Source of the DNA: Haliotis cracherodii
Lineage: Eukaryota
Length of the DNA: 64,000 bases
Direction of reading: 5' to 3'
NCBI RefSeq assembly: GCF_022045235.1
Contig: NW_027266267.1
Coordinates: forward strand, 35,216,001 to 35,280,000
A program made the position numbers and the translations under genes. The stretch's first letter is position 1, and every line of letters starts with the position of its first letter. A model generated the notes under the pieces. It was not told the origin of the DNA and ran no database searches. It was given only the letters and a program-made list of their open reading frames with translations. Of the stretch, positions 27,013 through 56,647 are shown piece by piece.

Positions 27013-27180
27013 GGGGGCGGTCGGGTAGCCAAGTGGTTAAAGCGTTTGCTCGTCCCGCCGAAGACCCGGGTTCGATCCCGACATGGGTATAATGTGTGAA
27101 GCCCATTTTTTGTGTCCCCCGCAGTGATATTGCTGGAATATTGCTAAAAGCGGCGTAAAACTATACTCATTCACTCACTT
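27013..27180 (+). mobile_element. SINE family 1
   Basis: Full length with TSD cagtgatatca. A partial inverted copy lies at 27373-27460. Confidence 0.9.
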
Positions 27181-31129: not shown

Positions 31130-31836
31130 CCAGGGTTCGATGTCACGCAATTACCCAAGCAACCTTGGTATGACCAGAGTTTGACGACACGCAATCAAGC
31201 AATCAAGCCTTGTATGACTAGGGTTCGATGTCACGTAATCCACTAATCAACCTTGGTATGACCAGGGTTTGATGACACGCAATCAAGCAATCAACCCTTG
31301 TATGACTAGGGTTCGATGTCGCGCAATCAACTAATCAACCTTCGTATGACCAGGGTTTGATGATACGCAATCAAGCAATCAACCCTGGTACGGCCAGGGT
31401 TCGATGGCACGCAATCAACCAAACAGCCTTGGTATGACCAGGGTTCGATTTCACGCAATGAACCAATCGACCTTGGTATAACCAGGGTTCGATGAAGCGC
31501 AACCAACCAAGTAACCTTGGTTTGATAAGGGTTCGATGACACGCAATCATGAAATCAACCTTGATATGACCAGGGTTTGCTGGCATGCAATCAACCAATC
31601 AACCTTGGTATGACCACGGTTCGATGTCACGCAATCAACCAAGCAGCCTTGGTATGACCAGGGTTCGATGTCACGCAAACAACCAAACAGCCTTAGTATG
31701 ACCAGGGTTGGATGTAAAGCAATCAACCAAACAACCTTGGTATGACCAGGGTTCGATGACACGCAATCAACCAAACAGCCTTGGTATGACCAGGGTTTAA
31801 TGCCACAAAGTTGAACAAGTAACCTTGGTATGACCC
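31130..31836. repeat. 44-bp minisatellite, ~16 copies
   Basis: Unit cagggttcgatgtcacgcaatcaaccaagcagccttggtatgac. Confidence 0.9.
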
Positions 31837-32279
31837 CAAAATCGAATAACATAGCATACAATTACCTCAGAATCCCAGAGGTAATGCAAATTATATAGGC
31901 CACGCACTAATCCTAAAATTGACGAGCATGATTAACAAAACACCATAGTCTTAGACTCTGGCATTAAAAGACTGGAACATTGAACTGAGCGCTGTATACT
32001 ATTCACAGGTAGAACTATCCATGTCACCAAAAATGAATATAAGTTAGTTTCTTGATTATAAGAATGTTGTCATCCGTGAATTATCGCCAGTACTGAAATG
32101 GTGTTACATTTTAATCAAAATCTGCATGCATGACGAATAGCACATAAGGTCTACTGTTTACCTTCAGTACGTCACTAATATGATTGAGGTAATGTTTGAA
32201 CTAGAAGCCCCAAAGATATACCCACCATGTATTCAGTTGGCCCACACATTTCCACAACAAGAAATGAACTTTGTCTTAC

Positions 32280-32384
32280 CTTGTGTACTGCCTTCAGGAA
32301 TCTGCGTTGATGTTAACGGTAATTGTTGAACAGTCGATGGCCTTGATGGTAGAGTTTTGTCTGTGCGACTGGTCTCAGGAAAGT
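32280..32384 (-). CDS. Gene D stalk exon, copy 4
   Basis: DFPETSRTDKTLPSRPSTVQQLPLTSTQIPEGSTQG; catcaag acceptor and gtaaga donor. Confidence 0.7.
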
Positions 32385-35300
32385 CTTGATGTACAAATTA
32401 TATAATTAAAACACTGTTACTTGTGGTAATGTTCTTCGTAATACATACAGTGGTTCTGACAGTAAGGACCTAAAAACTGTAGGTCAATCACCATCATCCG
32501 ACGAGGACAAATGATCTTAAGATAGCATGACGTCTGTAAACATATTTGCCTGTTAGTAAAACTCCATAGAATGTGATGAATTTGAATCAAATACAATTAC
32601 CCGAAAGAGCATTGTCAAGAATATGTTACTTAGTCGAAACCTGCATACTGATCTTAACATCGAAACCCATGCCCTGCAGAGTAATTGTTCACTTGAAGTA
32701 TAATGTTTTAAGAACGCATATACATGTATATCACATGCATAAAGAGAAGCAACCCTTTAACTTAGCAACGCCACATGCTAGAGTTGCATTCATGATTTTT
32801 AGGACGTGGAATCTGACACTTTCTGAGATGACATTATAAAAACTAATAATATGGTGGCAAAATTGATAATTTGATTCGAGCCTCCTGAGCAAATTTAGGC
32901 CTGATCATTGGCGCGAACAAGCATTCCGACATACATGTATATCCCTATCATCCAATTCACTACTCTAATTCCTTAGACATATCACCCATCGTCGTGATCG
33001 CTACCTGACATATCACCCAGCATCCGTATTCCTACAAATGTATCCCCGAGCATCTCAATAAGTACCACAATAACACCAAGCATCTAGATTAGCACCGACA
33101 TATACCACAACATCCTGATCACTAATGACATATTCTCCAGCATCCCGATCATTGTAACCTTGGTATGACCCCAAAATCGAATAACATAGCATACAATTAC
33201 CTCAGAATCCCAGAGGTAATGCAAGTTATATAGGCCACGCACTAATCCTAAAATTGACGAGGTTGATTAACAAAACACCATAGTCTTAGACTCTGGCATT
33301 AAAGGACTGGAACACTGAACTGAGAGCTGTATACTATTCACAGGTAGAACTATCCATGTCACCAAAAATGAATTTAAGTTAGTTTCTTAATTATAAGAAT
33401 GTTGGAATCCATGCATTATCGCCAGTACTGAAATTGTGTTACATTTTCATCAAAATCTGCATGTATGACGAATAGCACATAAGGTCTACTGTTTACCTAA
33501 AGTACGTGATTGATAGGATTGAGGTAATGTTTGAACTAGAAGCTCCAAAGATATACCCACCATGTATTCAGTTGGCCCACACATTTCCACAACAAGAAAT
33601 GAACTTTGTCTTACCTTGTGTACTGCCTTCAGGAATCTGCGTTGATGTAAACGGTAATTGTTGAACAGTCGATGGCCTTGATGGTAGAGTTTGGTCTGTG
33701 CGACTGGTCTCAGAAAAGTCTTGATGTACAAATTATATAATTAAAACACTGTTACTTGTGGTAATGTTCTTCGTAATACATACAGTGGTTCTGACAGTAA
33801 GGACCTAAAAACTGTAGGTCAATCACCATCATCCGACGAGGACAAATGATCTTAAGATAGCATGACGTCTGTAAACATATTTGCCTGTTAGTAAAACTTC
33901 ATAGAATGTGATGAATTTGAATCAAATACAATTACCCCGAAGAGCATTTTCAAGAATATGTTACTTAGTCGAAACCTGCATACTGATCTTAACATCGAAA
34001 CCCATGCCCTGCAGAGTAATTGTTCACTTGAAGTATAATGTTTTAAGAAAGCATATACATGTATATCACATGCATAAAGAGAAGCAACCCTTTAACTTAG
34101 CAACGCCACATGCTAGAGTTGCATTCATGATTTTTAGGACGTGGAATCTGACACTTTCTGAGATGACATTATAAAAACTAATAATATGGTGGCAAAATTG
34201 ATAATTTGATTCGAGCCTCCTGAGCAAATTTAGGCCTGATCATTGGCGCGAACAAGCATTCCGACATACATGTATATCCCTATCATCCAATTCACTACTC
34301 TAATTCCTTAGACATATCACCCATCGTCGTGATCGCTACCTGACATATCACCCAGCATCCGTATTCCTACAAATGTATCCCCGAGCATCTCAATAAGTAC
34401 CACAATAACACCAAGCATCTAGATTAGCACCGACATATACCACAACATCCTGATCACTAATGACATATTCTCCAGCATCCCGATCATTGTAACCTTGGTA
34501 TGACCCCAAAATCGAATAACATAGCATACAATTACCTCAGAATCCCAGAGGTAATGCAAGTTATATAGGCCACGCACTAATCCTAAAATTGACGAGGTTG
34601 ATTAACAAAACACCATAGTCTTAGACTCTGGCATTAAAGGACTGGAACACTGAACTGAGAGCTGTATACTATTCACAGGTAGAACTATCCATGTCACCAA
34701 AAATGAATTTAAGTTAGTTTCTTAATTATAAGAATGTTGGAATCCATGCATTATCGCCAGTACTGAAATTGTGTTACATTTTCATCAAAATCTGCATGTA
34801 TGACGAATAGCACATAAGGTCTACTGTTTACCTAAAGTACGTGATTGATAGGATTGAGGTAATGTTTGAACTAGAAGCTCCAAAGATATACCCACCATGT
34901 ATTCAGTTGGCCCACACATTTCCACAACAAGAAATGAACTTTGTCTTACCTTGTGTACTGCCTTCAGGAATCTGCGTTGATGTAAACGGTAATTGTTGAA
35001 CAGTCGATGGCCTTGATGGTAGAGTTTGGTCTGTGCGACTGGTCTCAGAAAAGTCTTGATGTACAAATTATATAATTAAAACACTGTTACTTGTGGTAAT
35101 GTTCTTCGTAATACATACAGTGGTTCTGACAGTAAGGACCTAAAAACTGTAGGTCAATCACCATCATCCGACGAGGACAAATGATCTTAAGATAGCATGA
35201 CGTCTGTAAACATATTTGCCTGTTAGTAAAACTTCATAGAATGTGATGAATTTGAATCAAATACAATTACCCGAAAGAGCATTGTCAAGAATATGTTACT

Positions 35301-38300
35301 TAGTCGAAACCTGCATACTGATCTTAACATCGAAACCCATGCCCTGCAGAGTAATTGTTCACTTGAAGTATAATGTTTTAAGAAAGCATATACATGTATA
35401 TCACATGCATAAAGAGAAGCAACCCTTTAACTTAGCAACGCCACATGCTAGAGTTGCATTCATGATTTTTAGGACGTGGAATCTGACACTTTCTGAGATG
35501 ACATTATAAAAACTAATAATATGGTGGCAAAATTGATAATTTGATTCGAGCCTCCTGAGCAAATTTAGGCCTGATCATTGGCGCGAACAAGCATTCCGAC
35601 ATACATGTATATCCCTATCATCCAATTCACTACTCTAATTCCTTAGACATATCACCCATCGTCGTGATCGCTACCTGACATATCACCCAGCATCCGTATT
35701 CCTACAAATGTATCCCCGAGCATCTCAATAAGTACCACAATAACACCAAGCATCTAGATTAGCACCGACATATACCACAACATCCTGATCACTAATGACA
35801 TATTCTCCAGCATCCCGATCATTGTAACCTTGGTATGACCCCAAAATCGAATAACATAGCATACAATTACCTCAGAATCCCAGAGGTAATGCAAGTTATA
35901 TAGGCCACGCACTAATCCTAAAATTGACGAGGTTGATTAACAAAACACCATAGTCTTAGACTCTGGCATTAAAGGACTGGAACACTGAACTGAGAGCTGT
36001 ATACTATTCACAGGTAGAACTATCCATGTCACCAAAAATGAATTTAAGTTAGTTTCTTAATTATAAGAATGTTGGAATCCATGCATTATCGCCAGTACTG
36101 AAATTGTGTTACATTTTCATCAAAATCTGCATGTATGACGAATAGCACATAAGGTCTACTGTTTACCTAAAGTACGTGATTGATAGGATTGAGGTAATGT
36201 TTGAACTAGAAGCCCCAAAGATACACCCACCATGTATTCAGTTGGCCCACACATTTCCACAACAAGAAATGAACTTTGTCTTACCTTGTGTACTGTCTTC
36301 AAGAATCTGCGTTGATGTAAACGGTAATTGTTGAACAGTCGATGGCCTTGATGGTAGAGTTTTGTCTGTGCGACTGGTCTCAGGAAAGTCTTGATTTACA
36401 AATAGCATAATTAAAACACTGTTACTTGTGGTAATGTTCTTCGTAATACATACAGTGGTTCTGACAGTAAGGACCTACAAACTGTAGGTCAATCACCATC
36501 ATCCGACGAGGACAAATGATCTTAAGATAGCATGACGTCTGTAAACATATTTGCCTGTTAGTAAAACTTCATAGAATGTTATGAATTTGAATAAAATACA
36601 ATTACCCCAAAGAGCATTTTCAAGAATATGTTATTTAGCCCAAACCTGCATACCGATCTTAACATCGAAACCCATGTCCTGCAGGGTAATTGTTCACTTG
36701 AAGTTTAATGGTTTGAGAAAGCATGTGCATGTATATCACTGGGTGAGATGCCAATGCGACAATCACACCAAAGTGTCATGGTACTGTAGCTCTACAGTCA
36801 CAAAAGTGCCAACATAAAGTCAAAATAAAAATTGTTTGAGCACTGAATTTCAACTATTTTCTGCATACATTAACTCTGAAACAATCCATTCTATTGTATC
36901 AGTGGTTCCTAATCCTCCATAAAACATGTAAAATGAAATATTATACAAGTTTCAACTCTGAGTCTTACACGCCTCCTTATATTGCTATACACGTTCCCAG
37001 CATTTAAATCCATAACAACATATCCCCAGCAATTGATGATTAAAAACATATCAGCCACCACTTCAATGCCTACCAGCTTTTCCCCCAGCATCTCGATTAC
37101 TATCGGTATATCTATAAACACCCCGATCACTACCAAAATACCCCGAGCATCTTGATCACTGCCAACATATCCCCAGCATCTTAATCGCTACCGATATATA
37201 CCCCAGCACCTGGATCACTAAAGGTCTATCCCTCAGCCTCTCAATCACTAAGGGCACATCCCCGAGCGTCATTGGATCTCGGTCAATACTGGCAAATCCC
37301 CCAGCGTCCTGATAACTTCCGACATTAATTAATCTCAAGATATATCCCCCAGCATCTCGACCACAACGGGTATATGCCCCAGCATACAAATAACTACCAG
37401 CATATCCCCCACTATCCCAATGATCACCGACATAATCCCCATAATCCCCACCGACATAATTCATCACTTACAGCATATTAATCCCCATCCCAAACACTAC
37501 CGAAATATCCCCCATAATGTCATTAACATTCGTTAAATATCTCCAAGCTTCCGGATCACCACCTACATATCCCCAGCACTTCGATCACTGCAAGCATTTC
37601 TTCGACCACCTCGATCACTGACAGCATATGCCCCTCCATCCCATTCACCATATCCCCCAGCATGGCCTTCACTGAAGCCTTATCCTCGATCATCCTGATT
37701 AGTAGTTTCTTATCTGTACAGAGCGAAGATTGTTTTTGGGAAACTTAACAAGTAAGGTCAGCATTAATAATAATCCTAAAAAATCATACAGGTTTCCAGG
37801 CATCGAAGTGTTATAAGGGGTGGCAATATAAACTTGGATTGGGCAAGAATGTGATACATTTAAGCAAAGAAGGTTATTATATATTAGTTCTTCCAACAGA
37901 TGGTTATACACTCATTTCCTTTATTATTTCTGGTGACCTTGACTTTTTTAAAGAAATCAACCATCTCCTAGACAGCTGTAGACTCTTTACGCCCGTTCAC
38001 AGTGGATAACCTGTCATAACAATGAAGGTATTGGATTGTAAGCTGTTTGAATTTTTAATTCATAGTAGCAGGGTTTTTTTTACCTTAAATCTATTATATG
38101 CCAGAACTTATAGAGAAAGATGTAGTAATTTAAACTGAATTGATGCTAAAAATCGATTCATACACCTTGCTCGACAACCCTGTTTATTGTGGAAATTTGT
38201 AAAGTAACATATGATGTACATACTCTAAAAATGTGGAACAATATTCCATTGGTTTTTGATAAGGAGGGTTGGCGCGAAGGCCTTTAAATCACTTAAATGA

Positions 38301-39438
38301 ACTGATGCGGCAGATTAATTTGATTATGTGGACAACATACATGATACGTTAATTGCCAACGGGCTGCCTCTTGGAAGACGATCAATATCAAACTCCCACA
38401 CTGACAACTTTAAGCTGAGCTACAGTAAAAGTATTATCAACACAGAGCATGACCACATTCCATCATTATACATACCTAAAGTGAGATTGTTACTGCCTCT
38501 ATTACGTGAATCCTCACATCGCCACACGGATCCATCATGGACGGTTAGCTCCGTGGTTAATGTCAGATTGTGTTGGTAGTATGTGCAGTTTACACTGACG
38601 CGACCCGAGATGTACTTATCATAATAGATGTCGGTATAATTACTTCCTCCGGGGATACTACTGGGCTTATCATTGTCACAGTGTTCGATGTTCTCTATTT
38701 TCCTTGAATTCAGGACGATTGCGCCGTCTCTGTACCATGTTGTATGCGTCATTGATTCGTTGCTGTTGCTGCTGCAGATTAAGGTGAAAGTGCCTTCAGG
38801 CGGGGTTATGTCAATCTCTAGAGTGAGTTCATCTGCAACTTTCAAAATAACATACATGTGACACGACTGATGTTTTGTTCAACACAACTTTAAAAAAATC
38901 ATTTGTGCTTCTTCAAAATTTCCTGGGAGTCAAAAGTGGTTGCAGGTTGCAGAGGAAGACAAATCAGGAAAACAACATCATTCGTCGTAAAAGGAAGATC
39001 AGTTTCGGGACTCATAATATATTTATCTTATTTTGTTGGTTCAATACATGAATAATGTACAAATCCGTGTACGTGTAATCTTTGTTTGAAAACAAAACTG
39101 AAATTTTGGATATTGTCAAGACAAAGAATATTATATATCAAGTAATTAAATATGAATTACAGAATTGTTCAACACAACTTTAAAAAGTAAGGTTGTTGTG
39201 CTTCTTACATAAATTGCGGTTGTAGGTTGCAGAGGAAGACAAATAAGGAAAACAACATCATTCGTCGTAAAAGGAAGTTTAGTTAGTTTTGGAAAAGAAT
39301 ATTGGACACTACCAAGACAAAGACTGTTTTGTAAGATTACTTGTGAAGTTCTGAAGTGTGTTGAAGCTTACCAGACGAATGTGCATACACAATCATCCCT
39401 ATCCACAGAAGGAACATCAGAGGAATCCCACTTCCCAT
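32280..39438 (-). CDS. Gene D: single-Ig receptor with four copies of a stalk exon (3' end uncertain, possibly 26221)
   Basis: SP 39438-39372, Ig 38832-38476, and 105-nt stalk exons at 36389-36285, 35054-34950, 33719-33615 and 32384-32280. All phase 1. Confidence 0.75.
33615..33719 (-). CDS. Gene D stalk exon, copy 3
   Basis: DFSETSRTDQTLPSRPSTVQQLPFTSTQIPEGSTQG; splice sites intact. Confidence 0.7.
34950..35054 (-). CDS. Gene D stalk exon, copy 2
   Basis: Same translation as copy 3; splice sites intact. Confidence 0.7.
36285..36389 (-). CDS. Gene D stalk exon, copy 1
   Basis: DFPETSRTDKTLPSRPSTVQQLPFTSTQILEDSTQG. Confidence 0.7.
36985..37700. repeat. Degenerate ~30-bp intronic minisatellite
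   Basis: atatcccccagcatc..gatcact motif. Inverted homologs at 43400-44300 and 46070-46660. Confidence 0.75.
38476..38832 (-). CDS. Gene D Ig domain exon
   Basis: FTLIC...TWYRDG...C...VSVNC...HNLTL...DGSVWRC...SNNLTL; 357 nt, phase 1-1. Confidence 0.85.
39372..39438 (-). CDS. Gene D signal-peptide exon (MGSGIPLMFLLWIGMIVYAHSS)
   Basis: ccATGG start context, hydrophobic core, gtaagc phase-1 donor. Confidence 0.85.
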
Positions 39439-41659: not shown

Positions 41660-42005
41660 AGCAATATACGAGCGTACATGGAGCGAAGAATGTGTTGTGA
41701 GTCCAGACTTGGAAGCTCGGTTTAACTCATGCAGCGTGTTAATTATTGGTCGCGGAAAACCGGTATAGAGAACGTGAGTAGTCCATGCCTGTTATCAACC
41801 ATAGCAGAATAATAAATTAAAGATAACATAAACAGTTGGCGTATCAGCAGACGAACTTAAACACCCGCGCATATGATCATACGGCTAACATTAACATAGG
41901 GAAATATAAATATACGACAGTGTTTCACAAGGTACGAGGTTTACAGTGTGTATATGAACCAACCTGTAGCTCGTCAGTGAGTCTGCAAGCAGATCTGGCG
42001 AAGCC

Positions 42006-42072
42006 ATGGGCAGTGAGATTCCTCTGAGGTTCCTACTGAGTATAGGAATGATTGTGTATGTACATTCGTCTG
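42006..42072 (+). CDS. Gene E signal-peptide exon (MGSEIPLRFLLSIGMIVYVHSS)
   Basis: Inverted paralog of 39372-39438. Confidence 0.85.
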
Positions 42073-43204
42073 GTAAGCTTCAACACAGTTCAGTATTTCA
42101 CAATTGATCTTACAATACAGTCTTTATCTTGGCAGTGTCCAATATTCTTTTCCAAAACTAACTAAACTTCCTTTTACGACGAATGATGTTGTTTTCCTTA
42201 TTTGTCTTCCTCTGCAACCTACAACCGCGTTTGACTCCCAGGAATTTATTTAAGAAGCACAACAACCTAACTTTTTTAAAGTTGTGTTGAACAAAACATC
42301 AGTCGTGTCACATGTGTGTTATTTTGAAAGTTGCAGATGAACTCACTCTAGAAATCAACATAACCCCGCCTGCAGACAATTTCACCTTAATCTGCAGCAG
42401 CAACAGCAACAGCAACGAATCGATGATGCATACAACATGGTACAGAGACGGCGCAATCGTCCTGAATTCAAGAAAAATAGAGAACGAACGCTGTGACAAG
42501 GATAAGCCCAGTAGTATCCCCCACAACAATACTTATACCGACAGCTATTATGATAAGTACATCTCGGGTCGCGTCAGTGTAAACTGCACATACTACCAAC
42601 ACAATCTGACATTAACCACGGAGCTAACCGTCCATGATGGATCCGTGTGGCGATGTGTGGATTCACGTAATAGAGGTAGTAACAATCTCACTTTAGGTAT
42701 GTATAATGATCGAGTGCCTTCATGCTCTGTGTTGATTTTGATTTTACTGTAGCTCAGTTTAACATTGTTCAATGTGAACCTTAGGCAGTAGCCTCCGTCC
42801 AAGAGTCAGCCCGTGTGTGTTAGGAGTTATATACTATTAATTAATATCAAACTAATCCGCGGCATCAGTTCATTGACGTGATTTACAGCCTTCATGCCAA
42901 CCCTCCTTATCAATAACCACTGGAATATTGTTCCACATTTTCAGACGATGTTCATCACATCCTACCCTTAAATGTTACTTTACAAATGTCCACAATAAAC
43001 AGGGTTGTCGTGCAAGGAGTATGGAATATCTAAATTCAGTGTAAATTACTAACACGCTCTTGTAAGAGTTTGTATTCAACTTCTATGTAGGTTATGGCTT
43101 ATAATAGGTTTAAGGTCACGACTATAGCTACTACTAGGAATTAAGCACGCACTCGACTTACAACCCCCCCCCACCCCTCCACACACCACCTCCTATCCCC
43201 CACA

Positions 43205-43236
<32 letters not shown>

Positions 43237-46200
43237 CCACACCATTCCTCGTTCCCGTTTTATATTGCCTCCCTTATAACACCTTGACACCTCAAAACCA
43301 AAATGGAGTTTTTGATATATTGCCAGTGCTGACCTTATTTCTTATTTTTTTTCAAAAAGCAATGTTCGCTCTGTACAAATAATTTCCTCAGAAATGATTG
43401 AACAGGGTGGTCGGGGATATGACGTCAGTTAAGGCCATACTCGGTGATAAGTCGGTAGTGACTGGGATGGAGGGGGATATGCTGTCAGTGAAGAAATGCT
43501 TGCAGTGATCTGAGTGGTGGGGATTATCGTTAGTGATCAGAATGCATTTAAGTAGTAGTGTCGGTAGTGTTTGGGATTGAGATTATTATGTTGTTTTGGA
43601 TGAAGATGCTGGGGATTATATCGGTGATGATTGGGGTAGTGGGAAATATGCTGGTAGTTATTGGTATGCTGGGGCATATACCCGTTGTGGTCGAGATGCT
43701 AGGGGATATATCTTCAGATTAATTGATGTCGGTGGTGATCGAGACGCTGGGGATATGTCTTTAGTGATCCAGGTGCTGGAGTATACTAGTATATCGGTAG
43801 CGATTAAGATGCTGGGGATATGTTGGTAGTGATCAGGATGCTCGGGTATTTTGGTAGTGATCGGGGTGTTTATAGATATACCGATAGTTATCGAGATGCT
43901 GGGGGATAAGCTGGTAGGGATGGTAGTGATAGGTGATATGTTTTTAGTGATACAATTGCTGGGGATATGTTGTTATGGATTTAAATGCTGGGGAATGTCA
44001 GTTGAGACATGGGTGCTCAGGGGAGAAGGGGGGGGGGATGCTAGATGCTTGGTGTTATTGTGGTACTTATTGAGATGCTCGGGGATACATTTGTAGGAAT
44101 ACGGATGCTGGGTGATATGTCAGGTAGCGATCACGACGATAGGTGATATGTCTGAGGTGATTGTGATGCTGGTGGATATGCGGGTTATGAAAGAGATCCT
44201 GGGGATATGTAGTTTGTAAAGGAGGTCCTCGGAATCTGTCTGTTTTGAGTGGAATTGTTGGGATATGCCGGTAGTGATCATTATGCTAAGGGATGTAATA
44301 GTAGTGAATTGGATGATGGGGATATACATGTACATGTATGTCGGAATGCTTGTTCGCGCCAATGATCAGGCCTAAATTTGCTCAGGAGGCTCGAATCAAA
44401 TTACCAATTTTGCCGCCATATTATTAGTTTTAACAATGTCATCTCAGAAAGTGTCAGATTCCACGTCCTAAAAATCATGAATACAACTCTAGCATGTGGC
44501 GTTGCTAAGTCAAAAGGTTGCTTCTCTTTATGCATGTAATGCAAATATTTCTGAATGTTCGGAAATGTGATTCTCAGATGATATTACATGTGGGTGTTTT
44601 TAATAGATCTAAATATTTTGTCAAATATTTTGAGTGAGTGAGTGAGTGAGTTGGGTTTAACGCCGCTCTTAACAGTATTCCAGGTATATCACGGCGTGTC
44701 AGCTTAATGTGGGAGGAAAGCCCGAAGTGATGCAGGTCTCAGACGTTTACCACTTCGGTGAAACCCACGAGCATGGGTATGGTGCTGACAAACATAGAAA
44801 CATAATCTGGGCGAACCGGGATTCGAACCCACAATCCTAGGTTTTTTGCGTGCCCAAGGGACGCAACTCTGCACATCGAATCGCGGCGCCTTAGACGACT
44901 TGGCCACCCGTGACCCCAACAACTATTTTGAACGTGTATAGCATTATAAGGAGGCGTGTAAGACTCAGAGTTGAAACTGAGTATAATATTTGATTTTACA
45001 TATTTTATGGAGGATTAGGAACCACTGATGCAATAGAATGGATTGTTTCAGAGTTAATGTATGAAGAAAATAGTTGAAATCCAGTGCTCATAGTATATTT
45101 ATTATGACTATGTTGGCACTTTTGTGACTGTAGAGCTACAGTACCATGACACTTGTCGCATTGGCATCTCACCCTGTGATATACATGTACATGTTTTCTA
45201 AAATCATTATACTTCAAGTGAACAATTACTCTGCAGGACATGGGTTTCGATGTTAAGATCGGTATGCAGGTTTGGGCTAAGTAACATATTCTTGAAAATG
45301 CTCTTAGGGGTAATTGTATTTGATTCAAATTCGTCACATTCTATGAAGTTTAACTAACAGGCAAATATGTTTACAGACGTCCTGCTATCTTAAGATCATT
45401 TTCCTCATCGGATGATGGTGATTGATTTAATTAAATGAATACATATCCAGAGTAAAACTTTTGGGAAACAAATAAAATATATAGTGCATAATGAGAAGTT
45501 CTTAAGGTTTAACTGAAGGAACGTTACTTGTAGTGTGTTGTGACAATGTTAAGCAATATTATGTTTATTTATTATTTCGTGAAATGTCCTTACAGGCTTT
45601 ATAGCTGTATAGCTAACTGTCCAAACGTCACTAGTCTCCTCAATATCTATGCAGAAACTATTTAAATTCCAATGCTGACGGCAACTTTCTGAGGACACCA
45701 GGACCTACAGTTTTTAGGTCCTTACTGTCAGAACCACTGTATGTATTCCGAAAAACATTACCACAAGTAACAGTGTTTTAATTATATAATTGGTACATCA
45801 AGACTTTCCTGAGACCAGTCGCACAGACCAAACTCTACCATCAAGGCCATCGACTGTTCAACAATTACCGTTAAAATCAACGCAGATTCTTGAAGGCAGT
45901 ACACAAGGTAAGACAAAGTTCATTTCTTGTTGTGGAAATGTGTTGGCCAACTGAATACATTATGGGTATATCTTTGGGTCTTCTAGTTCAAACATTACTC
46001 AATCCTATTAATCATGTACTGTAGGTAAACAGTAGACCTTATGTGCTATTCGTGAGATCTTCAGATTAATTAATGTCGGTAGTGATTAGGATGCTGGGGT
46101 ATATGCCAGTATTGGTCGTGATCCCATGACGCTCGGGGATAGGCCCATAGTGATCGAGACGCTGAGAGATATGTCTTTAGTGATCCAGAAGTTGTAGGAT

Positions 46201-49200
46201 GTATCTGTAGGAATAGGGATGCTTTGGCTTATGATGTTGTTGACAGTGATCCCGCTCGGAGACACGCCCATAGTAAGTTAGAAGCTGAGTAATATGCTGG
46301 TCGTCACTGAGACTGATATGCTTTTAGTGATTGATATTGTGGGGGATATGTTGGTAGTGATCAAAATGTTCGGGTTATGTTGGTATTGATCGGGATGCAT
46401 ATATCGGAATAGGCTGGTAGGCATTGAGGTGACTGGCGATACGTTGTCAGTGGTGAAAATGCTTGGGAATATATCGATAGTGATCAAGATGTTGTGGTAT
46501 ATGTCGGTGCTAATTTGAATACGTGGGGATACTGTGGTACGTATTGAGATGCTAGGGGATTCATTTGTAGGAATACTGATACTGGGTGATATGTCAGGTA
46601 ATGATCACGACGATGGGTGATACGTCTGAAGTGATTATGATACTGGAGGATATGCGGGCTGTCAAAGAGATCCTGGAGATCTGTCGGTTGTGAAGGTGAT
46701 CCTGGAAATGTGTCGGTTGTGAAGGTGATCCTGGAAATGTGTCGGTTGTGAAGGTGATCCTGGAATTGTGTCGGTTGTGAAGGTGATCCTGGAAATGTGT
46801 CGGTTGTGAAGATGATCCTGGAAATGTGTCGATTGTGAAGGTGATCCTGGAAATGTGTCGGTTGTGAAGGTGATCCTGGAAATGTGTCGGTTGTGAAGGT
46901 GATCCTGGGGATATGTCTGTTTTGAATGGAATACTTGGGATATGCCGGTAGTGATCATAATGCCAAGGGGTGTTCCAACAGTGAAATGGATGATTAGGGT
47001 TTATGCGGGAATGATCGGAATGCTTGTTTTCACTAACGATCAGGCCTCAAGACGTTCGAATCAGATTACCAATTTTGCTGCTATGGGATTATTTTTAACA
47101 ACATTTTATTCAGAAAGTGTCTTTAAGCTTGCAATGCAAACATTTGTTTATGTTCTGAAACTTGATTCGAAGATGTGATATTGTATGTGGGTGTTTATCA
47201 AAACTTTATTTTGTAAAATACTTTGAAAACGTATGGCATTATAAAGAAGCATGTAAGACCTAAAGTTGAAACTCGAATATTATTTCATTTCACATGTTTT
47301 ATAGTGGATTATATTTATATGCATTGTAAAAACATTGTAAGTCAAGTGAACAATTACTTTGCAAGACATGCATTTCGATGTTAGGATTGATATGCATGTT
47401 TGGGTTAAGAAAAATATACTTCCAAATCCTCTTGGAGGTAATGGAATTAGATTCAAATTCATCACATTCTAGGATGTTTTATTAAAATGCAAATATGCTG
47501 ATAGACGTCATGCCCTCTTAACATCGTGTTCTTAGATAATCTAACATTCAATATCGTGGTCAGTTCATATTTGTGTCTACGTATATATTACCAATAGTTA
47601 TAGACCATCATCATTATAGTCAAAATCTCCACACAAAACGGTACTATATTTTTAAAAGTCATATCTTCTCTTCATAGTATTATGTTTTGTAAAATACTAA
47701 AATACTTTATATGTTGTTGTTTCTGTCACCATGATGGATGATGGTGATGGATTTAATGAAAATACTCAATATGAATGCATATTTCCATTTCAATGCCGTC
47801 AGCAACGTTCTGATGTCCTTATGAAATGCAGTTACTGTCAGAACCATTGTACTTATTGTGAAGACAAGTAACATTTGCATCTTCAAGTAACACCCTGTTA
47901 TGGATCCAAATAATTCATTGATGTTAATGTTAATTCCATGCCGGTGTCCAATATGCAATGATAATAATGATAATGTGTGGATAAAGGAGTTTGGACAAGC
48001 ACGAATATCTCGACTCTGGTATGAACAAGCAAACGCTAACTATAGAGGGGGAACTCTCTGGCAATTTGGAATCCATTGCCTGTATTTCTGGAACGTTATA
48101 TCCTGGCCTAAATACAAAGAGATTTTTTTGGATCGGGTTGTAAGGGTCAGTGATGGTTGATTACAGCATCGTTTTTCTGTATATGGGCATTACCCTTTCG
48201 AAGCGTCGATTTTGCACTGAAACGCGTCGAAATTGATTTTGGAATAAAACTGGGCTAGGGTAACGTGACACGTTAACCTTGGACGAGACACTGAATGTGT
48301 CCATTTCTACAGACGAACACAGCAATTATTTAAAATATATCACTTTGGTACACTTGTACGATTTTATTTTGTATTTATTTTTGTCAATAACTGGTGACAT
48401 TGTCTCTACTTTGTCGTTGCCACATTCATTCATTTTCACTACTAGTTTTAAACATTTCTCTGTGATAAATCTAGTTATTTTACTGCCCATCGTTGGCAGG
48501 TTTTTATACGTTTTCAAAGTATTTCTGATATTTAACCTTTGATAGTCACGATATGGCTGAAATATTGCCGATGTGACTTAAAACTTAACTCACTCACTCA
48601 CTCACTCATTCATTTTCACAATCTGACTGTTGACAACGTGTTGTCATTTCATTCACTCGCCACAGTCGCATTCTCTTCATATAAGCATGTAGTACGTCAC
48701 ATACATATATAGGACTGAGCAAAGATTGTAAGTTTTATATCTCTATATAGTAGCATGAACGGTGATAACTCCTGGCAGGCAGTCCTGGAAGGCAACTAGC
48801 ATCGGGGAGATCTGGTTTAGCCAAGTCAGAAATTCCATACAGTGCAAAACAAGAGCATGCAATTGTTTGCTTTTTGGGGTTCAGATTCACTCCCCAGTCA
48901 TAAAGCGTCTTGATCGGCTAATATTGACACGACAGTACTGTTACTCGAGAGCAACTATTATAGTATGCACTGGTATTGAATTTTTGGATATTGATTATTT
49001 CCTGGCCAAATATTCATTCTTATTGATTACCCACCCATGTTGGTATATTGTAAAACACATTGGCTGACACTGCCGCTAAAAGAAGTTGACACTCGTTTTA
49101 ACTTCTCTTTTTTAAGCAGGTTATGCTATATTTCTACTCACTCACTCAGACATACTTCGTGTTGTGAAAAAACCGATGTCAATTCCTTGAAATGTTAAAC

Positions 49201-51196
49201 CATCATTCAATAGTGTATAGGTGAATGGTAAAATATCAAAAGTTGACATCAGTGGAAGGTAAAATTTTAACAGTTGACTTCAGTGAAATATTAAATATTA
49301 TCAATTGACATCAGTGGAAGGTTGAATATCAAAAGTTGACTTCAGTGAAAGATTCAATATTAATAGTCGACTTTAATGAAAGTTTAGATATTACTAGTTG
49401 ACTTCAGTCAAAGGTTAAATTTTAATAGTCGACTTTAGTGAAAGGTTAGATATTAATAGTTGACTTCAGTGGAAGGTTAAATATTAATAGTCGACTTTAG
49501 TGAAAGGTTAGATATCAATAGTTGACTTCAGTGAAAGGTTAAATATTAATAGTCGACTTTAGTGAAAGGTTAGATATTAATAGTTGACTTCAGTGAAAGG
49601 TTAAATATTAATAATCGACTTTAGTAAAAGGTTAGATATTAAAAGTTGACATCAGTGGAAGGTTAAATATCAAAAGTTGACTTTACGGGTATGTGTGTTA
49701 CGGACTTCTTATTTTAGTTCGTAATAACCGTAGTTCGTTATAAGTATATGTACAGCATATTTACAACAAATGGTCGGGACTAAAAATATGTTTGTTATAT
49801 CGGTCAGTTCGTTATAAGCGTGTTCGTTAAAAACATAGATTACTGTATATGATTTTTGTATGCAGACATTTCAGAGGCTACTGAAGAGTCAACTACACCA
49901 CTGACTGATTCAGCAACAACGATCACTACAGACAGCGATACTCATGGTAGTTTTGTATCAGGTAAACATACGATGTATATTATATGTAGAGAAACATTTA
50001 TTCATACTAGTTATGTCATTCACATTTATGACGACGAAAGCCATTTTAATAACCACACGTCGGATACAATATTTAAAGTTTGTATTATCTTTTGTATATT
50101 ATATGTCTCCAGCTACCCACAGTTTAGTTAATAACTCGATCTGTATGCAAATGTCCCAACGTACGCTCAAAACACCCAAACATACAGTAATGTGTTATGT
50201 TATGTCCTCTGAGGTGGGCTATTTGGTTTTTTTTATTATTTGTCAGCAGGTTTTCCAGGGACTGGCTATAAGACAAGTTCACAACTGATTGATTCAACAA
50301 CAACGTTGGCAAAACTAACATCTATCAAGATAACTACTGCCCCGGAAATCGATAACAAAGGTACATGTACCCGTCGTCAACTAACCTATGGGTACGATGT
50401 GTATGATGTTTAGAAATATGCATGAATGTATAACAAAACCATATACTGACGCAGGATCCACGACGGACCACCAATGTGCATTGAACGCCATTTATCTGAA
50501 CAGAGAGTATTGTGATATTCTATATCACAGCAGGCCCGTGACGATTCCGGGGCAGAGTAGGTCTTCAGCAACCCATGCTTGCCGTAAAAGGCGACTACGC
50601 TTGTCATAAGAGGCGACTAACGGGATCTGGTGGTCAGGCTCGCTGACTTGGTTGATGCATGTCATCAGTCCTAATTGCATGGATTGATGCTCATGATATC
50701 AATCACTGGATTGTCTGGTCCAGACTCGATTATTTACAGACCGCCGTCATATAGCTGGAATATTGCTGAGTGCAACGTTAAACATCAAACCAACCAACCA
50801 ACCAACCATATCACAGCTCCAGATATTACGTTTTTTTGCACGGTATTTCTATTGCTGCAGTTTGTTCGAATGCAGATACTGACTTAGCTAAGTCACTGTG
50901 AGTGAATAACGATTATGAATAACAAAGCAAGTCATATTGTAGTAACACCACAAGTAGCATGGCAAAAATAGCATGGACCATACACCCATTACTAACGACG
51001 TGCTCCTTCACGTCATCGGGTGTAGAGGACAAATTGGATCCATTGGATTTCAATGTTAGTCGGCCATCATGGCTATCATAGGCTACTGATATACAGACAC
51101 ATCTTGTATGTAGTAGTTACATACAATATGCATCTCTGCTTACCATGCCCAAAACCTAGTGCTTTTACATTACTACAAACGATCAGGCTACTCGTA

Positions 51197-51260
<64 letters not shown>

Positions 51261-54200
51261 GATCACTTTTCCCTTTCGAAAACAAAACATCCCAATCAAA
51301 AACAACCTAAATTATTTATGGTGAAACATTATCAAATAAATTACTTCATATCATAGCTCCATAATAGTCTCTTCATACAGACGGACGCCTCCAACTTCAT
51401 CTGCGTGTACAGCATGGTTCCTCTTCATATGACGCTTATGTTGTCTTAGAATATTGAACACTTACACTCAATGGGTATATACATGGTCTCATACTAATAT
51501 AAACTCATACATGTGCCAATTTCACGAAGCGAATTTGTTTTCTTTTCAAGATGAAGCCATATACATCTCGGTCGGGGCGGTAGTTTGCGTCGTGCTCTTT
51601 ATTATAATCGTTATCTGTGTATGTGTTGTGAGGAAGAGAAGAATGGGAGTAGTAACAGAAGGTAAACTACGTCTTTTATGACGGTTGGAACATATAGCAG
51701 TTATTTGCCATCATATTCTAATTTGAACTTGATCATTCATGTCAACGTTAAGCAGTACAAATATAATGATTAAATGTCAGTTTCATAAACGTAATAATCG
51801 ACAGCTCTTTATTTCAGCTTTTAATAAAAAAAAGTATTTGAATATACATCCACAACCATCAACCAAAGCATTAAAAATAGAAATATTATAAATAATGCAG
51901 TGAACAAATTGAAATGATCGTCATGTATGTTCACAGCTCACAGCGATGCAGACAATGGTGCAGAGCTAACAGCAGCCCCAACCAATGCTACGTGAGTAAA
52001 ATGTTAATTACTTCCATATTCCCGTATGAGTCGCCAAAGATATATCGATTATCTCATATCGTTCAATAACGATCAAATAGCCAATTCGCTTCCACTTATT
52101 TACCCACCTAACCCGAAATAAAGGAGATTTATTTAGATCTATGCAGAAAGTTTCAGAGTGACAAAACACTTTCCACAACTTTCTAATAGTCCACTGTTCT
52201 TTTATGTAGAGCAATATTCCTACAGCTCCAGCTCTTGGTGTCTATATTGCACAACTTTTGAGGTACAATCGAGCATGCCCTTTCTGCCAAGAATTCAAGG
52301 AGCGTCATACACCTCTTGCTCAGAAGCTGTTTGATCAAGGTTACAACATTCAAAGAAACATTCAAGGCCAAAGTTTTCAAAACGTTTATGGTAGACATGT
52401 TGAGGACAAAACTGACGCAGCAGTGACAAAATTGATGTTCGATCCAATTCCCTATTTGGACTTGTACCATATGGTCCCGTGTTCTTTTCAGGTGATCAAT
52501 TGACTTGTCTTTGTGCGTGTTTATGACGGGTATCGCCGATGGGACTAGTAACACTCAACTTTTCACAAACACCTGGCCGTGGTCTTCTCACTATTTGATA
52601 GTGATTGATAAACACATAATCATGATACAGTCGGAATCGAACAATCGACTGTGCTTAAGGCGGAGGTTTCTTATGAATATGGAGTAGGAATTAATTGATT
52701 GTTATCACTATATAACTATCCACGGAGATGGTTGACCTTGTCGCCTTCAATTGAAATGTTTATATTTACAGAATTAAAATTCACATCGACGGACGCATCA
52801 ACAGCCCTGATCACAGGTAATTCACTTGAATCCTTAATAACTTCAAGACCGCCTCCGGGGTCTAATGGTAGAGCGTCCGCCCGGACAGCGGAAGGTCCGG
52901 GATTCGATCTCCGGGCGCGTCCTACCAAAATACGTTAAAAGATAGTACTTGTTGTTGCCCTGTCTGGCGCTCGGCATGAAGGGGCTAAAACAAGGACTGG
53001 TTGGCTCGCATTCAGTATACTGTTTCTGAGTGGGGTATTCATGTTAAACTGCGGCATGGTATCTCAGTGAGCTAGCACTATAAATCGGCATCAGTCCGGA
53101 CTAGTACAAGCAGCCACACAAACAGACACACGAACATGCACGTCGCTATAGAAGCGCAATAATCTTGGACGCGACGTTAAACCCCATTTCACCTCACCTC
53201 ACCTGAAAACTTCTAAATTTGTTTTTATAATGCAGCTGCTTGAAAAAAAGCGCACATTGTGTATCCTCAAGTGGTTGAACTCGACCTTTTATAAGTTCTA
53301 ACATATTTTCAAATTTGTATTGTATTAATAAGTATGATTGTTTGATTACATGTTGTTGAAGGACGATGGGCTATAAATAGACACACTTGTTCTTGATATT
53401 ACAGGCAACGCCCAACACCTATTCGGATACGATGACACAAGTCACCCATCAATAATATCCCCTTAAATGTGAACTTTCTTAACTTGTTTGTTTGTTGTTA
53501 AACGCCGCCCTCAGCAACATTCCAGCTATATGACGGCGGTCTGTAAAATAATCGAGCCTGGATCAGACAATCCAGTGATTGGCATCATGATCATCGATCC
53601 ACCCAATTGGGATCGATGACATGTATCAGCGAGCGTGACCACCCGATCCCGTTAGTCGCCTCTTACGACAAGCATAATCGCTTTTTACGGGAAGCAGGGG
53701 TTGCTGAAGATCTATTCTACCCCGGAATCGTCACGGGTCTTAAAAGTGAACAAAACCCATTGTTCATGTAAATGTTACGGACTTATTCCTGCCACTTTGC
53801 GAATGTGTAAAGATCACATTTTCGTATAGGTTTCTATGTAATTTTGGCTATTATTATTTGCAATTATTTATTCCAGAGTTGAAACATGCAATAACTTTAA
53901 AATGAATTATATTCCTTTTCAGAAACCAAGTTCAACCTGGTGACAAGAAAGAGCACTTAACTAGTAAGTCTTCACAGTTGTGGTGTTCTTCACTTCCTCA
54001 CACATATGACTATTGTATTTGAGTTGTGATTATAGATAAAGCGTTGCCTTCTCGATGAACCTTAATAATTTCAGAAAGAATATCTAGGGAAAATAATATG
54101 TTGTTACTTGTTGGAATATAAACACCATGATTCTATATTTAACTGCCGTATCAGACAAGACACCCGAACACCTGCCTGCTCTTGACAGTGCTGTCGACGT

Positions 54201-54528
54201 TGGCGATCTGTTTGCCGTACCAGACAAGACACCCGAACACCTGCCTGCTCTTGACGGTGCTGTCGACGATGGCGATCTGTTTGCCGTACCAGACAAGACA
54301 CCCGAACACCTGCCTGCTCTTGACGGTGCTGTCGACGTTGGCGATCTGTTTGCCGTACCAGACAAGATACCCGAAAACCTGCCTGCTCTTGACAGTGCTG
54401 TCGACGTTGGCGATCTGTTTGCCGTACCAGACAAGACACCCAAACACCTGCCTGCTCTTGACGGTGCTGTCGACGTTGGCGATCTGTTTGCCGTAAACAG
54501 AACCTTACCGTCGTCTCATTTTATATGA
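42006..54528 (+). CDS. Gene E: single-Ig type-I receptor with a tyrosine-free A-type tail (candidate decoy)
   Basis: Exons 42006-42072, 42337-42696, 45803-45907, 49866-49946, 50250-50360, 51551-51661, 51937-51991, possible 52772-52816, 53923-53963 and 54155-54528. GT-AG, phase compatible, open. Confidence 0.75.
42337..42696 (+). CDS. Gene E Ig domain exon
   Basis: 360 nt, phase 1-1, close paralog of the D Ig exon. Confidence 0.85.
43400..44300. repeat. Degenerate ~30-bp minisatellite (inverted homolog of 36985-37700)
   Basis: gatgctgggg(g)atat..gtagtgatc motif. Confidence 0.75.
44632..44918 (-). mobile_element. SINE family 4
   Basis: Homologous to 23225-23494; TSD tattttga. Confidence 0.85.
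45803..45907 (+). CDS. Gene E stalk exon (D-type, single copy)
   Basis: DFPETSRTDQTLPSRPSTVQQLPLKSTQILEGSTQG; 105 nt. Confidence 0.75.
46665..46910. repeat. 29-bp minisatellite, ~8 copies
   Basis: Unit tgaaggtgatcctggaaatgtgtcggttg. Confidence 0.9.
49230..49683. repeat. 31-bp minisatellite with alternating 62-bp higher-order structure
   Basis: aatagttgacttcagtgaaaggttaaatatt alternating with aatagtcgactttagtgaaaggttagatatt. Confidence 0.9.
49866..49946 (+). CDS. Gene E stalk exon (ISEATEESTTPLTDSATTITTDSDTHG)
   Basis: 81 nt; an alternative in-phase donor follows 49961. Confidence 0.7.
50250..50360 (+). CDS. Gene E stalk exon (A-type)
   Basis: FPGTGYKTSSQLIDSTTTLAKLTSIKITTAPEIDNKG; 111 nt. 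Confidence 0.75.
50533..50808 (+). mobile_element. SINE-like family 2, full length
   Basis: (ACCA)n tail; flanking atatcacag duplication. Confidence 0.85.
51202..51256. repeat. (TA)n microsatellite
   Basis: Directly visible. A shorter homologous tract lies in the gene A intron at ~5367-5384. Confidence 0.95.
51551..51661 (+). CDS. Gene E transmembrane exon
   Basis: DEAIYISVGAVVCVVLFIIIVICVCVVRKRRMGVVTEG; 111 nt. Confidence 0.85.
51937..51991 (+). CDS. Gene E juxtamembrane exon lacking NPxY (AHSDADNGAELTAAPTNAT)
   Basis: 55 nt with the same splice sites as A 4511-4565. Confidence 0.8.
52100..52430 (+). mobile_element. Penelope-like retroelement RT C-terminal fragment
   Basis: SNIPTAPALGVYIAQLLRYNRAC...FKERH...QKLFDQGY...YGRH, typical of this region in Penelope-like elements. 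Confidence 0.7.
52847..53205 (+). mobile_element. SINE family 3 (tRNA head + V-domain-like core), best-preserved copy
   Basis: A/B boxes; core accaaaatacgttaaaagatagtacttgttgttgccctgtctggcgctcggcat; (CACCT)n tail. Confidence 0.85.
53484..53740 (-). mobile_element. SINE-like family 2
   Basis: Homology to 50533-50808. Confidence 0.85.
53923..53963 (+). CDS. Gene E cytoplasmic microexon (NQVQPGDKKEHLT)
   Basis: 41 nt, homolog of 3661-3701. Confidence 0.75.
54155..54528 (+). CDS. Gene E terminal repeat exon: 5 x 69-bp units with FAV(P) instead of YAVP
   Basis: TPEHLPALDGAVDVGDLFAVPDK repeats. The upstream intron is homologous to that of gene A. Confidence 0.8.
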
Positions 54529-54870: not shown

Positions 54871-56647
54871 GATGAAACGGGTGCCTTGAAACGTGCCTTT
54901 TAATTATCAAAATAGTGGAAAACTTGTTAGTTGGTATTATTTTGTACATTAGTTTATGTAACATTTTAAATTCATATTTGTGCGCTTATCTCTTTCACAT
55001 TCTTTAAACTTTAATATTGTTACAGGGACATTTCTCTATTACGCTATTGGTCGTATTGGTTGTCATGTTTTTTACATTTATACTGATTTCATTGCAACAC
55101 ATATTTAGTTTAGATGTTTCCACCCCGTGCGTATTGCAGTTTGAATAACGACATTGTACATATTTGACTACGTTATGTGTCGTTGTCTTCAATCGTATTA
55201 CGAATGTCAAAAAAGGGCAAAAGCGCGACCAGTTAAAATATATGTCAAAACCGAATATAAATATACCAGGAAAATCGTCACAGAATATTTCAACATATTT
55301 TAATTGGGCAGTTGATTCACGTATTGCAAGCAAATACTACAACAGGGATGTGATAGTGTTTCAATGCGGTTTTCCTCTGTGTCTCGGGGAAGACAAACCA
55401 ACATCATTATATTCGTGTATTGTGTAACATTGTATCCTTTACCAGCAACGTATTTTGCTATTAAGGCTTCGTCGCACAAAATACCTCAAGGAAGGATGAT
55501 CACGATTGTCACTCCTACAGGAATATTCAGTTCAAGCGAATATAAGCCAGACATAACGGGGTTGAATATAAAAAAATGTCGGTTATTATGAAAGTTAACA
55601 TATTTGATCTTCATTGGATCATGTTCACGTAGTCTCCTGTATATTAGGTGCTTTGGTCATATACATAGCATGGGAATTATTTTTGTAGTTTTTTTACATC
55701 AGGGTTCTATCTGATGATGTTTATGCAAACCGTTAAAAATGTTGTTTTTATTGCTGCATAGTCCCCTGTGTCATGTTATATGTGAAGAAATTACACTTTT
55801 TTGATTTTCAATGTACAATGTATTTTTCTATTATTCAATCATTTACATTTTCACATATATTTTAGTCGCACAGACGTTTTTATGTTGTCCTACATGTTGT
55901 TCAAGTTTAAGTGTTTTGTTTTAACATGTGGCTTTTACTTCCTTATCTGCTTTCAGCAACAAATAAATATGCCTCAACTAAAAAACTGTGTTCTTTTCAC
56001 TCTCAAACCTAATGTTCAATGCTTGTAAGAACAGTCTAAACTTCACATGCGAAACTTCCAACTTTCCACCATTGTTGATGAGACACTCCACAAAGTAACT
56101 GAACCCCCAAACAGGTTCCTAATCGAAGAAAGCAGGCAAAGCAGATCCTTGTGATAGTTACTTAATTTATAAAGCGTGCTATTCATCAGAGCTATATGAA
56201 ATGTGTGATTTGCCAAACTGTTCTAAACACTTACGAATTTTACATTATGAATACTAGTATGTCAATAATCTGTCGCCAAAACAAAAACAAATGGAACAAA
56301 CGTTGTATGTTGTGTATGTGAGTGGGCGGACAAAGGAAACAGTCAAGCATGGGTTGTTGAAGACCTACCCTACCCCAGATCTTCACGGATCTTTCCTTTA
56401 GTGGGTATTTGAGATGTGCATTTTCATTCGGAATAATAACTGGACATGCTTCATGTTACGCCAAATTGTTGCTTAACGTCGCAGGCAGGACTGTTCCAAG
56501 CACAATAAGAAATAAACAAAACATACACGATAAACTGATTGTTAATTTTAAGAAATTTGAATTCAATTCATAAAGTATCATTGTCAGAAAATTCCATACA
56601 AAAATTGAGATCAGAGATCGGTATTTTAAGAACTGAATTAATTATTT

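Follow-up and report, generated by a model that had tools for sequence, protein, structure and literature searches.

The receptor cluster and gene E

We analyzed a 64,000-nucleotide stretch of the genome of the abalone Haliotis cracherodii (contig NW_027266267.1, forward-strand positions 35,216,001 to 35,280,000), hereafter called the window. It forms the right end of a cluster of genes for type I membrane receptors with a single immunoglobulin-like (Ig) domain, which was surveyed in the window together with 110 kb of left flank and 70 kb of right flank (contig label C4). Genes A, B, C and D lie on the minus strand. So do six further A-type genes, whole or partial, which occupy the left flank and to which we gave the working names P1 to P6. 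The subject of this report, gene E, is the sole plus-strand member of the cluster and stands head to head with D, with 2.6 kb from ATG to ATG. Gene E is almost certainly of mosaic ancestry, with a D-type head and an A-type tail.

Gene E consists of ten exons that form one open frame, and all its splice sites are AG/GT (Table 1). The finding in an earlier note on this DNA ended at 51661. The gene continues to a stop at 54526-54528 and includes an extra 45-nt exon at 52772-52816. The same note had placed all exon junctions in phase 1, which is correct from the signal peptide through the transmembrane (TM) helix to exon c1, and again from c2 to the last exon. The junctions c1 to c1b and c1b to c2 are both phase 2.

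The promoter homology of E and D extends ~180 bp above the ATG. At the other end, an AATAAA at 55962 lies within the conserved 3' flank, and 54904-56253 is a possible 3' untranslated region (UTR) of E. Intron 7 holds a high-copy, high-depth fragment (52190-52460, +) that resembles a piece of a retroelement reverse transcriptase. A search of the 1.18-Gb genome with the Ig exon gave at least 50 matches.

Table 1. Positions in the window of gene E, its parts and the neighboring genes.
Feature	Position	Strand	Remarks
Gene A	2870..7205	-	A-type Ig receptor; NPLY and eight YxxP motifs in 243-aa tail
Gene B tail exon	9391..9578	-	ITAM consensus (YGTL-x9-YSEI) and ITIM consensus (VYYNTV)
Gene C tail exon	16437..16624	-	ITAM/ITIM-consensus type as in gene B
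Gene D	26221..39438	-	Head-to-head partner of E
E proximal promoter/5' UTR	41902..42005	+	TATA-like TATAAATA; common to D; putative promoter
E exon 1, signal peptide (D-type)	42006..42072	+	Phase-1 donor; missing in RefSeq model
E exon 2, V-type Ig-like domain	42331..42696	+	89% aa to D, 41-46% to A-types
E exon 3, Ser/Thr/Pro stalk, 105 nt (D-type)	45803..45907	+	
D-type intron unit, older duplicate (~80%), without stalk exon	46057..47915	+	Contains 29-bp minisatellite
D intron 3 remnant, last D-type sequence in E	48856..49060	+	Matches 29604-29379, 85% ungapped
Junction interval	49061..49848	.	31-bp minisatellite (49221-49685), then high-copy short element 49704-49848
E exon 4, stalk, 81 nt (A-type)	49866..49946	+	RefSeq uses alternative in-frame donor at 49961
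E exon 5, stalk, 111 nt (A-type)	50250..50360	+	
E exon 6, TM helix	51551..51661	+	No charged residue; then basic stop-transfer stretch
E exon 7 (c1)	51937..51991	+	A-type SENPLYV replaced by TAAPTNA; NPxY motif gone
E exon 8 (c1b), 45 nt	52772..52816	+	Common to P1, P2, P6
E exon 9 (c2), 41 nt	53923..53963	+	
E exon 10, coding part	54155..54528	+	Five 23-aa repeats; stop 54526-54528
3' flank of E	54904..56253	+	Conserved with flanks of A, P1, P2, P6
ITAM and ITIM, immunoreceptor tyrosine-based activation and inhibition motifs.

Two halves of different ancestry

The head of E was proposed in the earlier note to be an inverted homolog of D, and self-BLAST bears this out, with 41902-46067 matching D at 39543-32119 (84-98% ungapped). 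The proposal that the tail is an inverted homolog of gene A holds in part. The segment 49841-56253 is inverted and colinear to A, its 3' flank included. However, it is also an inverted homolog of the six left-flank A-type genes or parts (~78-82% ungapped to P6), and the E tail is about equally close to A and to its flank paralogs, so descent from gene A itself is not supported. Because the E tail is nested in no A-type subgroup and is 76-78% alike to all, the donor appears to have been an early A-type gene rather than today's A.

Synonymous divergence (pS) separates the two halves. Against seven A-type genes, the head of E shows pS of 0.54-0.67 (95% bootstrap intervals from 0.45 up) and the tail 0.17-0.31 (95% bootstrap intervals to 0.43). 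The tail of P3 was left out of this comparison, and the head and tail intervals are separate. Among A-types, the corresponding ranges are 0.12-0.30 for heads and 0.08-0.34 for tails; for A against P1 and P6 they are 0.26-0.27 and 0.17-0.24.

The same division is seen in non-coding DNA. In E, the promoter, intron 1 and the first part of intron 2 can be aligned with D (z 47-65) and with no A-type of the five compared (z <=2.8), whereas the same regions of A and P6 align well to each other (z 17-67). Five tail intron segments of E align to every A-type tested (z 21-59). Separate nucleotide trees for the exons, proposed earlier as a check, agree: D/E is separated from the A-type Ig exons by a branch of 0.81, versus 0.18-0.23 for the E tail. 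In the genome search, only the Ig exons of D and E exceed 45% identity to that of E, and the 105-nt stalk exon has only five copies in the genome (one in E, four in D).

Fast protein evolution cannot produce such a contrast; the halves differ in age. Synonymous sites, introns and promoter, and tree lengths thus agree on a D-type head joined to an A-type tail, as the earlier note had supposed. The 5' and 3' parts of E come from different genes, as in a fusion gene.

The earlier note had found no second signal-peptide/Ig exon between the halves, and a profile hidden Markov model built from 32 family Ig exons, run in six frames, detected no Ig exon in 42696-49866. One ATG-started hydrophobic stretch there (46549) lies in minisatellite-like DNA, and no Ig exon follows it. 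The locus has no spare head or tail for E; there is one plus-strand repeat exon.

The junction between head and tail

A switch zone had been placed at 46100-49850. It does contain minisatellites (29 bp x8.9 at 46669-46926; 31 bp x14.9 at 49221-49683), but most of it is still D-type, and the junction narrows to 49061-49848. Just before this interval, D intron 3 is the sole full-length match in the genome to 48856-49060. After it, A-type homology starts at ~49841-49848 for every paralog that has exon 4, and the 250 nt above E exon 4 align to none of four A-types. The breakpoint is intronic and keeps the frame, joining phase 1 to phase 1 in intron 3. A candidate second stalk exon near 47890 was rejected since the alignment ends before the exon.

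The high-copy short element in the junction interval is represented by its 3' part only; its 5' end is missing, and it ends in ACTG-TA 16 nt above the acceptor. We take it to be a miniature inverted-repeat transposable element (MITE) and infer that the break occurred at or near it. The 31-bp minisatellite is locally expanded, with two weak matches elsewhere, and is not a dispersed element.

Compared with D, the intron remnant has 31 mismatches in 205 positions, versus 66 in 1229 for conserved head pieces (p=3e-6, for pieces that we chose). These pieces are 93-98% alike to D and the remnant 85% (ungapped), and the E tail is ~80% alike to P6 (p=0.10 against the remnant). The data fit a single old event, after which gene conversion acted in patches on the heads of D and E, which are inverted relative to each other. 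The D-E head identity is itself patchy, from 85% to 98%, which may reflect conversion.

The Ig domain of E

With a 32-row alignment, AlphaFold2 predicts an Ig sandwich for E exon 2 (predicted local distance difference test [pLDDT] 83; predicted template-modeling score 0.80); from the single sequence, pLDDT is only 31. The Foldseek matches listed for this model are mostly VH/VHH chains (E values 5e-5 to 3e-4, TM-scores ~0.5-0.65). C21 (B strand), W36 (C strand) and C108 (F strand) are kept in at least 90% of the 32 rows. Ig V domains usually carry Tyr before the F-strand Cys; in E this position is Trp106.

Pfam gave no match at threshold for D, E or A. The best hit for E was Ig_2, with 16.9 bits against a cutoff of 27 and thus below the gathering score, and the Ig of A had no match at all. 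Exon 2 is predicted to encode a V-type domain of the Ig superfamily by its modeled fold and its Cys/Trp/Cys residues, although not by Pfam score.

Gene D and the D/E pair

Gene D comprises a signal peptide, an Ig exon (38476-38838), four 105-nt stalk exons in 1335-bp units, a 21-nt exon, and a stalk/TM/tail exon from 26594. The stalk length is set by the intron-plus-exon units (31819-36739, -), whose four copies are 98% alike. A protein model labeled H. rufescens, P0001, has the D layout with two such units; because of this shared layout, the D fusion discussed below appears to be common to another species.

Two paralogs of the D stalk/TM/tail exon lie elsewhere, one 67% alike at C4:22.80 Mb and one with a weaker match at C18:7.81 Mb. 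At both paralog loci, the upstream exons encode two copies of another domain of ~100 aa, and no Ig exon of the A/D/E family was found at C4:22.80 Mb. This four-cysteine domain (exon at L022:3645-3947, +) has 128 matches on C4 and C18 and no match in Pfam; it appears to mark a large unnamed receptor family. Homology of D to the C4:22.80 Mb gene covers ~24743-27574 plus a piece at 28068-28173. Homology of D to E starts at 29379 and has no overlap with it. D is thus probably a fusion gene as well, with a stalk/TM/tail (24743-28173, -) homologous to that of another receptor family (L022:3020-7200; L025-L026).

Given this foreign tail, the term "D-type head" should not be read as making D the intact parent of E. 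As read from these alignments, both tails now joined to the D/E head are borrowed, and the tail that it first had appears to be lost. The D tail diverges from its paralog by ~15-28% and the E tail from A-types by ~20%, figures that do not fix the order of the events.

The ectodomains of D and E are highly similar, a trait of paired receptors (Ig 89% at the amino acid level, 105-nt stalk 88-91%). However, the opposite signaling of such pairs was not found: E has no tail Tyr, the D tail has one Tyr outside motifs and no ITIM or ITAM, and neither TM helix is charged. We therefore do not class D and E as paired receptors.

Re-pairing of heads and tails across the cluster

In B, C, P3, P4 and P5, the gene ends with a single exon that carries ITAM and ITIM consensus motifs (B and C in the window; the others in the left flank, L005-L007), with the ITAM consensus taken as Yxx[I/L]x9Yxx[I/L], as given in the available text of PMC9546547. 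A, P1, P2 and P6 end in YxxP tails. The heads group by position, (A,B,C) versus (P1,P2,P3,P4,P6), with support 100/100; P5, whose head is partial, was left out of the head trees. A tree that groups heads by tail type is rejected (approximately unbiased [AU] test, p=1.8e-05). Because heads follow position and not tail type, re-pairing of heads and tails appears to be routine in the cluster.

These results, with the differing ancestry of the E halves, support the earlier idea that exon shuffling re-pairs binding and signaling modules. In E, the module did come to be paired with a new head, but it has since lost its tyrosines, so the present pairing is likely one of binding without signaling.

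A tail without tyrosines

The tail of E has no Tyr in 181 aa, whereas the tails of A, P1, P2 and P6 have 5-10. Those four carry 3-8 YxxP motifs in 23-aa repeats (eight in A, four each in P1 and P2, three in P6), and three of the four have NPLY. E has no YxxP motif, and so lacks a YxxP array. All five of its repeats read DLFAV/FAVP (TTT) where A-types read DLYAV/YAVP (TAT). NPxY is a motif for PTB binding and endocytosis. Among 38 relatives hand-picked from 150 listed, 35 have a TM helix, and 33 of these 35 have tail Tyr; the other two have 23-aa stubs. Among 7996 scored candidates, only P0004, a model of E itself, was a longer homolog of the E repeat exon, a result that is weak as evidence of absence. 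Phospho-YxxP is the CRK SH2 consensus and is ancient, being conserved from choanoflagellates according to the part of PMC5043372 available.

The E-specific changes concentrate at the NPLY codons (8 of 18 nt versus 4 of 37; p=0.012, for a segment chosen post hoc). A neutrally evolving tail should have gathered ~6.5 frameshifts or stops over its 513 nt, and none is observed (P ~0.001, a rough value). Because the frame is kept where so many lesions would be expected, the tail is probably still made as protein. We judge it rather probable that E is produced as a tyrosine-silent protein, and it likely binds a ligand without tyrosine signaling. That selection rather than drift removed the tyrosines is possible, although we hold this with less than even confidence.

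Transcripts and gene models

RefSeq-named protein models, automatic and called "uncharacterized protein," exist for E (P0003, P0004) and D (P0002, P0006, P0007); two D-like models (P0001, P0005) are named H. rufescens by their source. P0003 and P0004 map across the head-tail junction of E at 97-100% per exon piece. Both were modeled on the E locus itself and add no independent DNA.

Among sequencing runs matching 41900-43000, none is on record as RNA and six with small shares are only guessed to be, so that this search says nothing about expression. Contigs were also searched in runs X1-X4, which are only guessed to be RNA, and in X9, from organism C. An X1 contig covers 42533-42696 in the E Ig exon with no differences, where D differs at three sites. 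At 93% identity over 45700-50500, the D-type splice between 105-nt stalk exons appears in all four runs X1-X4. Contigs of X1-X4 contain no 45907-49866 joint and give no cover at 49886-50046, but contigs show presence, not absence. A search of 41900-54700 at 88% in X1, X2, X3 and X9 was swamped by repeats and gave repeat joints only. Low cover of tail exons in X1-X3 was not counted as E expression, because 40-nt windows of paralogs reach 88-100% identity.

X9 contigs match E's D-type intron duplicate, 47986-48336 and tail intron 53712-54139 at ~95%, with depth in 30 of 30 bins. A relative thus has E sequence of the D-type as well as of the A-type kind. We consider it likely that the E halves are joined in one transcript.

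Explanations for gene E

We lean toward the explanation that E is an expressed fusion receptor, with a D-type head and an A-type tail, that likely lacks tyrosine signaling. In an old rearrangement (~15-20% divergence ago) within a cluster of phase-1 cassette exons, the D/E head would have been placed before an A-type stalk-TM-tail block by a cut that fell within a short transposon. The D and E heads, inverted relative to each other, would later have exchanged sequence by gene conversion, which held parts of them 93-98% alike. The product would be a type I membrane protein whose V-type Ig stands on a mucin-like stalk of ~100 aa. An A-type tail would engage Crk-type SH2 adaptors at phospho-YxxP and PTB or endocytic adaptors at NPxY. 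E, a scaffold without these tyrosines, may instead act as a non-signaling sink, an adhesion molecule or a damper among its tyrosine-bearing cluster mates.

Several observations weigh against parts of this account. In the tail tree, E lies on the branch between (A,B,C) and the P group and is nested in neither (support 58/71). The head-tail splice comes from gene models, and those for E lack the signal peptide because their first Met lies within the Ig exon. Models in this cluster can be odd: P0009 joins the P2 head to the P3 TM and tail 17 kb away, by error or by cross-paralog splicing, and P0008 (gene B) skips the TM. The P0003 isoform uses an acceptor at 54187, within the first repeat, and so translates the array in a different frame that is hydrophobic and contains Tyr (LPYQTR), so not every E product is Tyr-free. 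Because the D tail has one Tyr and no ITIM or ITAM, E is no obvious decoy for D. Their Ig domains differ at 13 residues (nine outside predicted strands) and two indels, so D and E may not share a ligand.

The tyrosine losses bear on another explanation: the fusion gene is real but its tail decays neutrally, with incidental Tyr losses, leaving a tethered Ig/mucin ectodomain or no function. The five Phe repeats are 96% alike, which amounts to one mutation spread by repeat homogenization, so there were only about two independent Tyr losses. Together with a ratio of nonsynonymous to synonymous change near 1 for the tail against A-types (dN/dS ~0.6-1.4), which allows drift, this also counts against the expressed-receptor account. 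The flank has many copies that lack a head or a tail or are broken. However, frame and canonical splice sites are intact over seven tail exons, at the probability given above, changes concentrate at the NPLY motif, and it is the Phe unit, not the Tyr unit, that expanded to five copies. We regard neutral decay as unlikely, although less so than the alternatives that follow.

E might instead be two broken neighbors with no joined transcript, one a fragment of a D-like head that may be secreted, the other an A-type tail lacking a head. A 4-kb intron separates the halves, with possible poly(A) signals at 47481 and 48243, read-through of the 105-nt stalk donor would yield a short product without TM, and RefSeq models can stitch neighbors here, as in P0009. 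The matching phases and open frame, the two RefSeq isoforms that join the halves, and the lack of any promoter, signal peptide or Ig found for the tail make this improbable; a headless tail is not expected to keep its frame. It is very improbable that E is an ordinary old A-type paralog whose Ig diverged fast under positive selection, with D alone chimeric, even though D/E forms the sister group of the A-types in the Ig tree (95/93), the combination of Ig and a D(L/M)YAxP tail occurs widely among family members, and the D tail is native to another family. Selection on amino acids cannot make synonymous divergence two to three times as high in the head alone, nor remove the homology of introns and promoter only there, which largely refutes the idea; its claim about D is probably right yet leaves the mosaic ancestry of E standing. 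Equally improbable is an assembly artifact that fused one haplotype carrying D with another carrying an A-type gene. Near-identical repeats, such as the D units, abound in the region, but the E halves are 76-95% alike to D and A-types and not ~100%, and X9 contigs lie on E-specific stretches on both sides of the junction, although no listed contig spans it.

A broader suggestion is more tentative than the expressed fusion receptor. The cluster may be an undescribed abalone complex similar to KIR and Siglec, in which V-type Ig heads are swapped among ITAM/ITIM, YxxP and foreign tails, and selection made E a signaling-dead decoy. If so, E would record a full cycle in which a head was fused to a signaling tail whose tyrosines were then erased by selection.

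Other members of the cluster

Smaller rearrangements are visible on the minus strand. One deletion scar, at 12500-12540, is an Ig 3' end inside B, and another in C (18720-18800) fuses the Ig start to the end of the 81-nt stalk. In gene A, the 81-nt stalk is reduced to an 18-nt remnant (6358-6375). The signal-peptide exon of C (20404-20464) gives a weak, short match and appears degenerate; for this reason C may be a pseudogene. A distant cluster at C4:8.75-8.79 Mb (L028-L031) has related Ig exons and similar 23-aa tail repeats (DMYAKP, DMYAKL), and therefore the combination of Ig and Tyr-repeat tail seems to be old in the family.

Comparison with known systems

No description of this receptor family was found in a literature search that left most subscription journals outside its coverage. 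The word "immunoglobulin" does not occur in the main text of PMC13229213, whose supplements could list these genes. Module swapping retunes vertebrate innate receptor clusters, and the same logic would here apply in a mollusc, with a datable junction. The tail of E is a natural counterpart of the Tyr-to-Phe control mutants made in laboratories, and A and E offer a ready comparison for signaling by YxxP arrays through Crk-type adaptors in molluscan cells. With ITAM/ITIM, YxxP and silent tails on related heads, the cluster is a candidate immune or self-recognition locus in a disease-hit genus.

The D/E pair resembles SIGLEC11/SIGLEC16 as described in the available text of PMC5701461. Both are head-to-head Ig receptor genes a few kilobases apart (9 kb versus 2.6 kb for D/E), with a region from promoter to Ig that is homogenized by conversion, which is probable for D/E, followed by a more diverged zone and differing tails. 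However, Siglec-11 is inhibitory and Siglec-16 activating via an ITAM adaptor, whereas D and E have no ITIM, ITAM or charged TM residue and both took their tails from other genes. KIR fusion genes also arise by recombination in a dense Ig-receptor cluster that shuffles binding and signaling domains, and their breakpoints map to intronic transposable elements (PMC7516082, in the part available). Those fusions involve close paralogs in head-to-tail arrays and are often rare. In E, by contrast, the heads of the two source types differ by dS (synonymous substitutions per site) of at least 1, the gene lies inverted, and Tyr motifs were later lost.

Among invertebrates, the accessible portion of PMC12582321 describes Botryllus FcoR/Fester as Ig-superfamily receptors with tyrosine-motif tails whose extracellular and intracellular trees disagree through intergenic recombination, as in the abalone cluster. 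They differ in serving chordate allorecognition with Ig and Sushi domains and ITIM/hemITAM tails. Hydractinia Alr (PMC9546547) and oyster CgIgR (PMC6994640) also combine V-type Ig domains of unusual form with tails of various kinds, ITAM and ITIM tails among them, and for CgIgR the accessible text reports ITAM-Syk signaling in a mollusc. Their domain numbers differ, and the available parts of these two papers mention no YxxP array or fusion silenced by Tyr-to-Phe change. The A-type tails resemble p130Cas/BCAR1 and choanoflagellate YxxP-repeat membrane proteins, which in the available text of PMC5043372 have tandem YxxP and CRK SH2 docking. This is a likeness of motif only, and the E array is naturally Tyr-to-Phe. 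Fusion genes in receptor clusters are thus already known, and E is a molluscan case with a tyrosine-free borrowed tail.

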